64,000 bases of DNA, from the NCBI RefSeq assembly GCF_003018255.1, contig NZ_CP027440.1, one strand, 5' to 3'. Within the stretch, counting starts at the first letter, position 1. Every line of letters starts with the position of its first letter. Below are positions 29,764-29,780 of the stretch, piece by piece. Source of the stretch: Escherichia coli (lineage in GTDB: Bacteria; Pseudomonadota; Gammaproteobacteria; Enterobacterales; Enterobacteriaceae). The position numbers were made by a program, and so were the translations under genes. The notes under the pieces are model-generated. The model saw nothing but the letters and a program-made list of their open reading frames with translations. It had not been told where the DNA came from and ran no database searches.

Positions 29764-29780
29764 AATTGGTAAGACCAATT
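29764..29780. promoter_or_regulatory. PdhR operator palindrome in the pdhR-aceEF-lpd promoter
   Basis: AATTGGTaagACCAATT perfect inverted repeat just upstream of pdhR start; matches the known PdhR box. Confidence 0.85.

Follow-up and report, generated by a model that had tools for sequence, protein, structure and literature searches.

A known PdhR operator within an apparently intact pdhR control module downstream of the PAIusp island in Escherichia coli

Results

The window analyzed here, by which we mean the whole 64,000-nt stretch of DNA, comes from an Escherichia coli contig (NZ_CP027440.1, assembly GCF_003018255.1). In it, aroP (24001-25374, - strand) and pdhR (29812-30576, + strand) are separated by a non-homologous insert that is absent from K-12 and occupies approximately 25586-29459 on the + strand. 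The insert carries usp (25900-27681, + strand), whose 593-aa product matches T6SS_HCP (3.1e-13), Pyocin_S (1.9e-40), and the HNH profile Col-Pyo_DNase (3.4e-43). Three further + strand ORFs of 98, 97, and 96 aa match the Pfam Colicin_Pyocin immunity family: imu1 (27681-27977), imu2 (28375-28668), and imu3 (29066-29356). An orphan DNase C-terminal fragment of 78 aa (28136-28372, + strand), which covers Col-Pyo_DNase profile positions 54-124, precedes imu2; a second of 79 aa (28826-29065, + strand; positions 54-112) precedes imu3, and its C terminus is diverged and looks frameshifted. Both fragments resemble the displaced toxin tips of polymorphic-toxin loci, and a module of about 690 bp, made up of a DNase C-terminal fragment, an immunity gene, and a hairpin, is repeated three times. 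GC content across most of the island is 33%-41%, rising to 53%-57% only in the middle of usp (about 26400-27400), with flanks of about 52%.

The island is PAIusp (usp plus imu1-3), which has already been described (Rihtar et al., 2020, PMC7142922). At least 80% of the 25200-29900 segment is held by 1051 of the 5426 E. coli genomes in the RefSeq set, and the noncoding segment at the right end of the island (29357-29625) is present in 1058; wherever the island is found, it lies between aroP and pdhR. The same interval measures 804 bp in island-less genomes. The net extra DNA is 3,897 bp, which agrees with the original prediction that about 4 kb of foreign DNA parts the aroP upstream region from the pdhR promoter. 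The copy in the window is 100% identical to that of strain DETEC-S792, and its identity to other variants, which carry two to four immunity modules, is 87%-98%. For the identical locus, the RefSeq annotation shows tssD/usp, immunity genes, and small ORFs only, without an integrase or a tRNA gene.

Downstream of the island, at 29764-29780 on the + strand, lies the exact 17-mer AATTGGTAAGACCAATT, separated by 31 nt from the pdhR ATG at 29812, much as the distance of roughly 30 nt had been given. Its arms form a perfect 7-nt inverted repeat, AATTGGT and ACCAATT, around the 3-nt centre AAG. Because this centre lacks self-complementarity, the match on the reverse strand has three mismatches, and the earlier description of a perfect palindrome holds for the arms but not for all 17 nt, the centre being asymmetric. 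That the site follows the island was also correct, but "immediately" was too loose a word: the box is 407 nt past the imu3 stop (29356) and about 304 nt past the end of the insert (~29459). It is 142 nt past the point at which K-12-identical sequence begins (29622-29631).

The original identification of this element as the PdhR operator stands. Positions 122044-122060 of K-12 MG1655 are the same letter for letter. The operator was reportedly footprinted by Quail and Guest in 1995, at +11 to +27. Transcription of pdhR starts at an A that precedes the ATG by 58 nt (Olvera et al., 2009, PMC2759082), which corresponds to 29754 in the window, so that the box spans +11 to +27 and is centred at +19; these coordinates were rebuilt from that published start. 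The PdhR box of the K-12 aroP/pdhR spacer is AATTGGTaagACCAATT, a 14/14 match centred at 122052, and it gave the strongest gSELEX peak as well as a gel shift with PdhR (Anzai et al., 2020, PMC7660256). The PdhR box consensus in that study is AATTGGTnnnACCAATT, with the core GGTnnnACC (Anzai et al., 2020, PMC7660256), and the window box fits it at all 14 specified positions, the core included.

Perfect 7-3-7 inverted repeats occur three times in the 64-kb window, compared with 4.1 ± 1.9 times in shuffled sequence. Palindromy as evidence on its own was dropped because such repeats arise at chance rate. The 17-mer behaves differently: at up to three mismatches, 0.16 sites are expected in the window, and the one found is exact. 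What goes beyond chance is therefore identity to one specific published operator, not palindromy. The 15-nt consensus ATTGGTNNNACCAAT has no second site without mismatches in the 64-kb window, and matches to the PdhR consensus at up to three mismatches total fewer than chance predicts for the 64 kb, with no credible further box among them. The best other match, ATTGCTATAACCAAT at 61801-61815, has one mismatch to the 15-nt consensus and was rejected; it is probably a chance match, because the GGT core is disrupted and the site falls within a 905-aa ORF on the - strand.

The operator is embedded in a promoter module identical to that of K-12. The core promoter string occupies 29716-29754 on the + strand, ends at the transcription start (A 29754), and is K-12-identical; it is the published pdhR promoter string GTATGGACATAAGGTGAATACTTTGTTACTTTAGCGTCA (Olvera et al., 2009, PMC2759082). 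By our hexamer assignment, TGGACA (29719-29724) is likely the -35 element and TACTTT (29742-29747) the -10 element. Further upstream, ATGATTTCAATCAA at 29697-29710 differs by one mismatch from the FNR consensus TTGATNNNNATCAA and is centred at -50.5; an FNR site at the same position was found for pdhR-aceEF-lpdA by ChIP-seq (Myers et al., 2013, PMC3688515). The whole of 29631-29811, comprising FNR site, core promoter, transcription start, operator, and 5'UTR, is 100% identical to K-12, and from 29631 through the end of pdhR the only differences are six synonymous changes. In K-12 sequence, autorepression by PdhR is relieved by pyruvate (PMC2759082), and inputs from FNR, CRP, and Cra are also reported for pdhR in K-12 (PMC2759082, PMC3688515, PMC5888115).

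The repressor itself is equally unchanged. The 254-aa product of pdhR has the Pfam domains GntR (9.8e-26, a winged helix-turn-helix) and FCD (4.9e-17) and is 100% identical to K-12 PdhR, the six nucleotide changes being synonymous. PDB entries 5kvr and 5tpm are domains of E. coli PdhR. PdhR belongs to the FadR subfamily of GntR regulators; its winged-helix domain is joined to an FCD effector domain. The pdhR-aceE spacer is also identical to K-12. It contains a full-length match to the tp2 sRNA (RF02030; 30621-30734, - strand; 103 bits, E = 4.6e-19), antisense to the pdhR operon; this was the sole match of an Rfam scan of 25000-31000, which returned nothing at the operator or in the spacer between island and pdhR.

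Conservation was followed within E. coli and across genera. Of 5426 complete E. coli genomes, 5423 have a single copy of a 99-bp segment reaching from -38 to the ATG, and in 5363 its identity is at least 99%; a 46-bp segment with the box at its centre is unchanged in 5383 of the 5423, with or without the island. In an alignment of ten Enterobacteriaceae sequences, the box, the core promoter, and the FNR site stand out as invariant blocks. We also scanned species-representative genomes for the exact 17-mer, which gave at least 120 loci, of which 120 were sampled. A PdhR homologue is also encoded at 90 of these 120 among the matches listed, and its start lies 0-150 nt downstream of the box at 61 of the 120. 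The listed loci include Citrobacter, Enterobacter, Klebsiella, and E. albertii (PdhR 88%-99% identical in protein sequence), Vibrio and Photobacterium (64%-70%), Shewanella (~57%), Pseudomonas (~48%, with the box about 194 nt upstream), and GntR/FCD proteins of Bradyrhizobium (~32%). In other genera, among the matches listed, the distance between the 17-mer and the pdhR start ranges from 14 to 311 nt, and both orientations occur.

Between the island and the K-12-identical segment, the sequence has a different history. K-12-type sequence (98%-99%) ends on the left at 25461 and resumes on the right at 29622-29631. The left diverged flank (25462-25585) is an allele of the core spacer in which promoter P3 is retained; the right one (29460-29630) is an island-linked allele of the pdhR-upstream region that aligns to island-less Citrobacter. 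Within it, 29560-29621 is 84% identical to C. werkmanii but only 56% and 55% identical to K-12 and E. albertii, which are 89% identical to each other over the corresponding stretch. Among E. coli genomes, the 29460-29630 allele was confined to the 1058 with the island. We rejected a clean insertion beside the operator, since the flanks are diverged alleles rather than K-12 sequence. These alignments suggest instead that PAIusp may have reached E. coli together with non-Escherichia flanks, by homologous recombination from another enterobacterial genus, and that the right crossover would fall 124-133 bp upstream of the pdhR transcription start. A strong TyrR box upstream of aroP (25445-25462; TGTATTGATTTCTTTACG, with three differences from K-12 TGTATTAATTTGTTTACA) sits exactly where K-12-type homology stops.

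In the alignment to C. werkmanii, the left flank corresponds to target positions 680-869 and the right flank to 850-1203. The two targets overlap, so that a motif of about 20 bp, TAAAAAGAAACCATTTGTAA, appears at both ends of the island (25566-25585 and 29460-29479); Citrobacter and K-12 have one copy each. The two copies are identical at 14 of 20 positions, a score reached by 75 of 500 shuffles, so that the resemblance by itself lacks significance. By sequence, the pair could be a degenerate flanking direct repeat, or target-site duplication; PAIusp has been described as lacking flanking repeats.

The right flank also contains a Cra-like element. The core consensus for Cra is TGAAnCGnTTCA. A palindrome at 29562-29573, TGAATCGGTTCA, centred at -186.5 from the pdhR transcription start, is the sole exact match in the 64-kb window to TGAANCGNTTCA and to this core, and we take it, on the strength of that consensus, to be a candidate Cra site. 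It lies inside the Citrobacter-like flank, between the island and the K-12-identical segment. Its core is kept in most of the ten sequences of the Enterobacteriaceae alignment, with one or two differing positions in Kluyvera and in one Enterobacter MAG. The sequence flanking the core is GGTGAATCGGTTCAGA in the island-type allele and AGTGAATCGGTTCAAT in K-12, the island type being closer to consensus. Repression of pdhR-aceEF-lpd by Cra has been reported (PMC5888115). K-12 has AATTGGTAAGTGAATCGGTTCAATT at 121833-121857, about 190 bp upstream of the pdhR transcription start; it repeats the left PdhR half-site with its spacer (AATTGGTAAG), fused to the Cra-like palindrome, and the island-type allele, beginning TTGCTTGGTGAATCGG, has lost that K-12 half-site.

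The last structure before the pdhR regulatory region is a hairpin of 12 bp at 29380-29414 (+ strand), a perfect inverted repeat 24 nt past the imu3 stop that has no U tract and a folding energy of -21 kcal/mol (z = -3.6). It is one of three: hairpins of 11-13 bp lie about 25 nt past imu1 (28002-28034), imu2 (28684-28716), and imu3, with energies of -17.6 to -21 kcal/mol and z values of -3.6 to -4.5, all without a U tract. They may be stabilizers of mRNA 3' ends or attenuators. A scan for consensus terminators returned none on the + strand between imu3 (29356) and pdhR (29812), the 29380-29414 hairpin not qualifying, and a relaxed RNAfold-based scan gave only weak candidates (-5 to -8.6 kcal/mol, with poor U tails); such scans neither prove nor exclude read-through. 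With only U-tract-less hairpins and no canonical terminator in this stretch, island transcripts could in principle enter pdhR.

The promoter from which such transcripts would come is aroP P3, whose -10 hexamer TGGTAT lies at 25513-25518 (+ strand). This divergent promoter fires rightward through usp and the imu genes toward pdhR; it is activated by TyrR, repressed by H-NS, and drives usp (Rihtar et al., 2020, PMC7142922). The E. coli version is weak, the S. bongori promoter being about 20 times as strong (PMC7142922). In K-12, P3 is aimed at pdhR from a distance of about 340 bp, and no strong terminator was found between them. By adding distance and structure, the island would therefore raise the insulation of pdhR from P3.

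Discussion

The analyses presented here support the conclusion that the box in the window is the known PdhR operator and that the whole pdhR control module, together with its repressor, is intact downstream of PAIusp, a reading to which we assign a probability of about 0.93. In the proposed mechanism, a PdhR dimer would bind the two ATTGGT half-sites, centred at +19 and so just past the transcription start, and the bound protein would block transcription from the pdhR promoter. Pyruvate, acting on the FCD domain, would lower the affinity for DNA and relieve repression. Identity of both operator and repressor predicts that PdhR binding and the pyruvate response are the same here as in K-12. The original prediction that the island had not disrupted pdhR autoregulation is upheld at the level of structure: everything from 29631 to the ATG is 100% K-12, as is the PdhR protein, and autoregulation should be preserved accordingly with the arrangement.

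The position of the island offers an explanation for this preservation. PAIusp would have entered the aroP-pdhR spacer near its middle, some 300 bp ahead of the pdhR transcription start, at a point between the aroP control module, with its TyrR boxes and promoters P1-P3, and the pdhR control module. The island would thereby have taken over the rightward aroP promoter P3 for usp while leaving the control of pdhR alone. That the pdhR cis module is unchanged from K-12 would be due to an insertion that fell between the two modules. The same cannot be assumed further out: since the sequence upstream of -124 is a Citrobacter-like allele, distal regulation need not equal that of K-12.

Two other accounts of the box itself can be weighed against its role as a DNA operator. 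The 17-mer might be a palindrome without function that arose by chance in AT-rich intergenic DNA, and the chance-level frequency of 7-3-7 repeats in the window would allow this. Against it, the box has the same sequence as an operator defined by experiment at the orthologous position, does not vary among about 5,400 E. coli genomes, and is kept upstream of pdhR homologues that are only 48%-57% identical in Pseudomonas and Shewanella; we regard the idea as refuted by these conservation data, with a negligible probability left to it. Alternatively, the repeat might act as RNA: being transcribed (+11 to +27), it could form a hairpin in the 5'UTR that affects mRNA stability or translation, instead of or besides serving as a DNA site. 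Indeed, a 25-nt segment folds into a hairpin of 7 bp with a 3-nt loop (-5.2 kcal/mol, z = -2.9), but such a hairpin is a trivial by-product of any inverted repeat, and the 5'UTR as a whole folds no better than shuffled sequence (z = +0.25). The box is, moreover, a gSELEX target of PdhR at many places in K-12 other than the pdhR leader (PMC7660256), which fits recognition as DNA, and its variable distance and orientation relative to pdhR among the matches listed suit a DNA site better than a leader structure of fixed position. A role at the RNA level is thus very improbable.

A further possibility accepts the operator and questions how much it governs. Transcription from P3 through usp and imu1-3 might cross the pdhR promoter in usp+ strains and add expression of pdhR-aceEF-lpd that is independent of PdhR or modulated by it as a roadblock; the operator would be present and autoregulation partly bypassed. 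P3 shares the + strand with usp, the imu genes, and pdhR, it is the promoter that drives usp, and the + strand between 29356 and 29812 offers no consensus terminator and only weak relaxed candidates. On the other side stand the three very stable hairpins, one past each imu gene, and the 455-nt untranslated AT-rich stretch before pdhR, which would be expected to favour termination by Rho or H-NS; PdhR bound at +19 would itself serve as a roadblock. A large effect of read-through is unlikely because P3 is weak and repressed by H-NS and because in K-12 it already lies only about 340 bp from pdhR, and we consider partial bypass of this kind quite unlikely overall.

Both the operator and the insertion site of PAIusp are already known, the island and its exact location reportedly having been described between 2000 and 2020. 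The result accordingly carries little weight as a discovery and is useful as annotation: PAIusp sits between two independent control modules and the pdhR module is untouched, which fits the presence of the island in about one-fifth of complete E. coli genomes, their pdhR promoter being invariant. What could reach into physiology is an effect of island transcription, or of distal sequence linked to the island, on the regulation of pyruvate dehydrogenase (PDH) in uropathogenic strains. Control of the PDH operon in usp+ E. coli may differ subtly from K-12, either through leakage from P3, which responds to TyrR, H-NS, and urea, or through the island-linked 29460-29630 allele, with its Cra-like box nearer to consensus, or H-NS spreading from the AT-rich island. 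We hold this to be unlikely; if true, it would tie central carbon flux to a virulence island.

Compared with known systems, the locus combines two familiar parts. The island matches PAIusp as described (PMC7142922; Zaw et al., 2013, PMC3685522) in its place in the aroP-pdhR spacer, its size of about 4 kb, and its low GC content, and also in a Usp protein with Hcp, S-type pyocin, and HNH DNase parts, three immunity genes, and P3 upstream; nothing essential differs from the known island. The operators of FadR, LldR, GlcC, and NanR, short inverted repeats from which a bound winged-helix dimer is released by a small-molecule effector, share with that of PdhR the GntR plus FCD architecture of their regulators and the logic of an inverted repeat, whereas the half-site sequence and the effector, pyruvate, are specific to PdhR; cross-recognition by LldR or GlcC may occur. 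Relative to the K-12 PdhR box of pdhR-aceEF-lpd, the window has the same 17 nt, the same offset from the transcription start, the same distance to the ATG, and the same promoter, 5'UTR, and repressor. Only the context differs: going upstream, a non-K-12 allele begins 124-133 bp before the transcription start, and PAIusp follows from about 295 bp.
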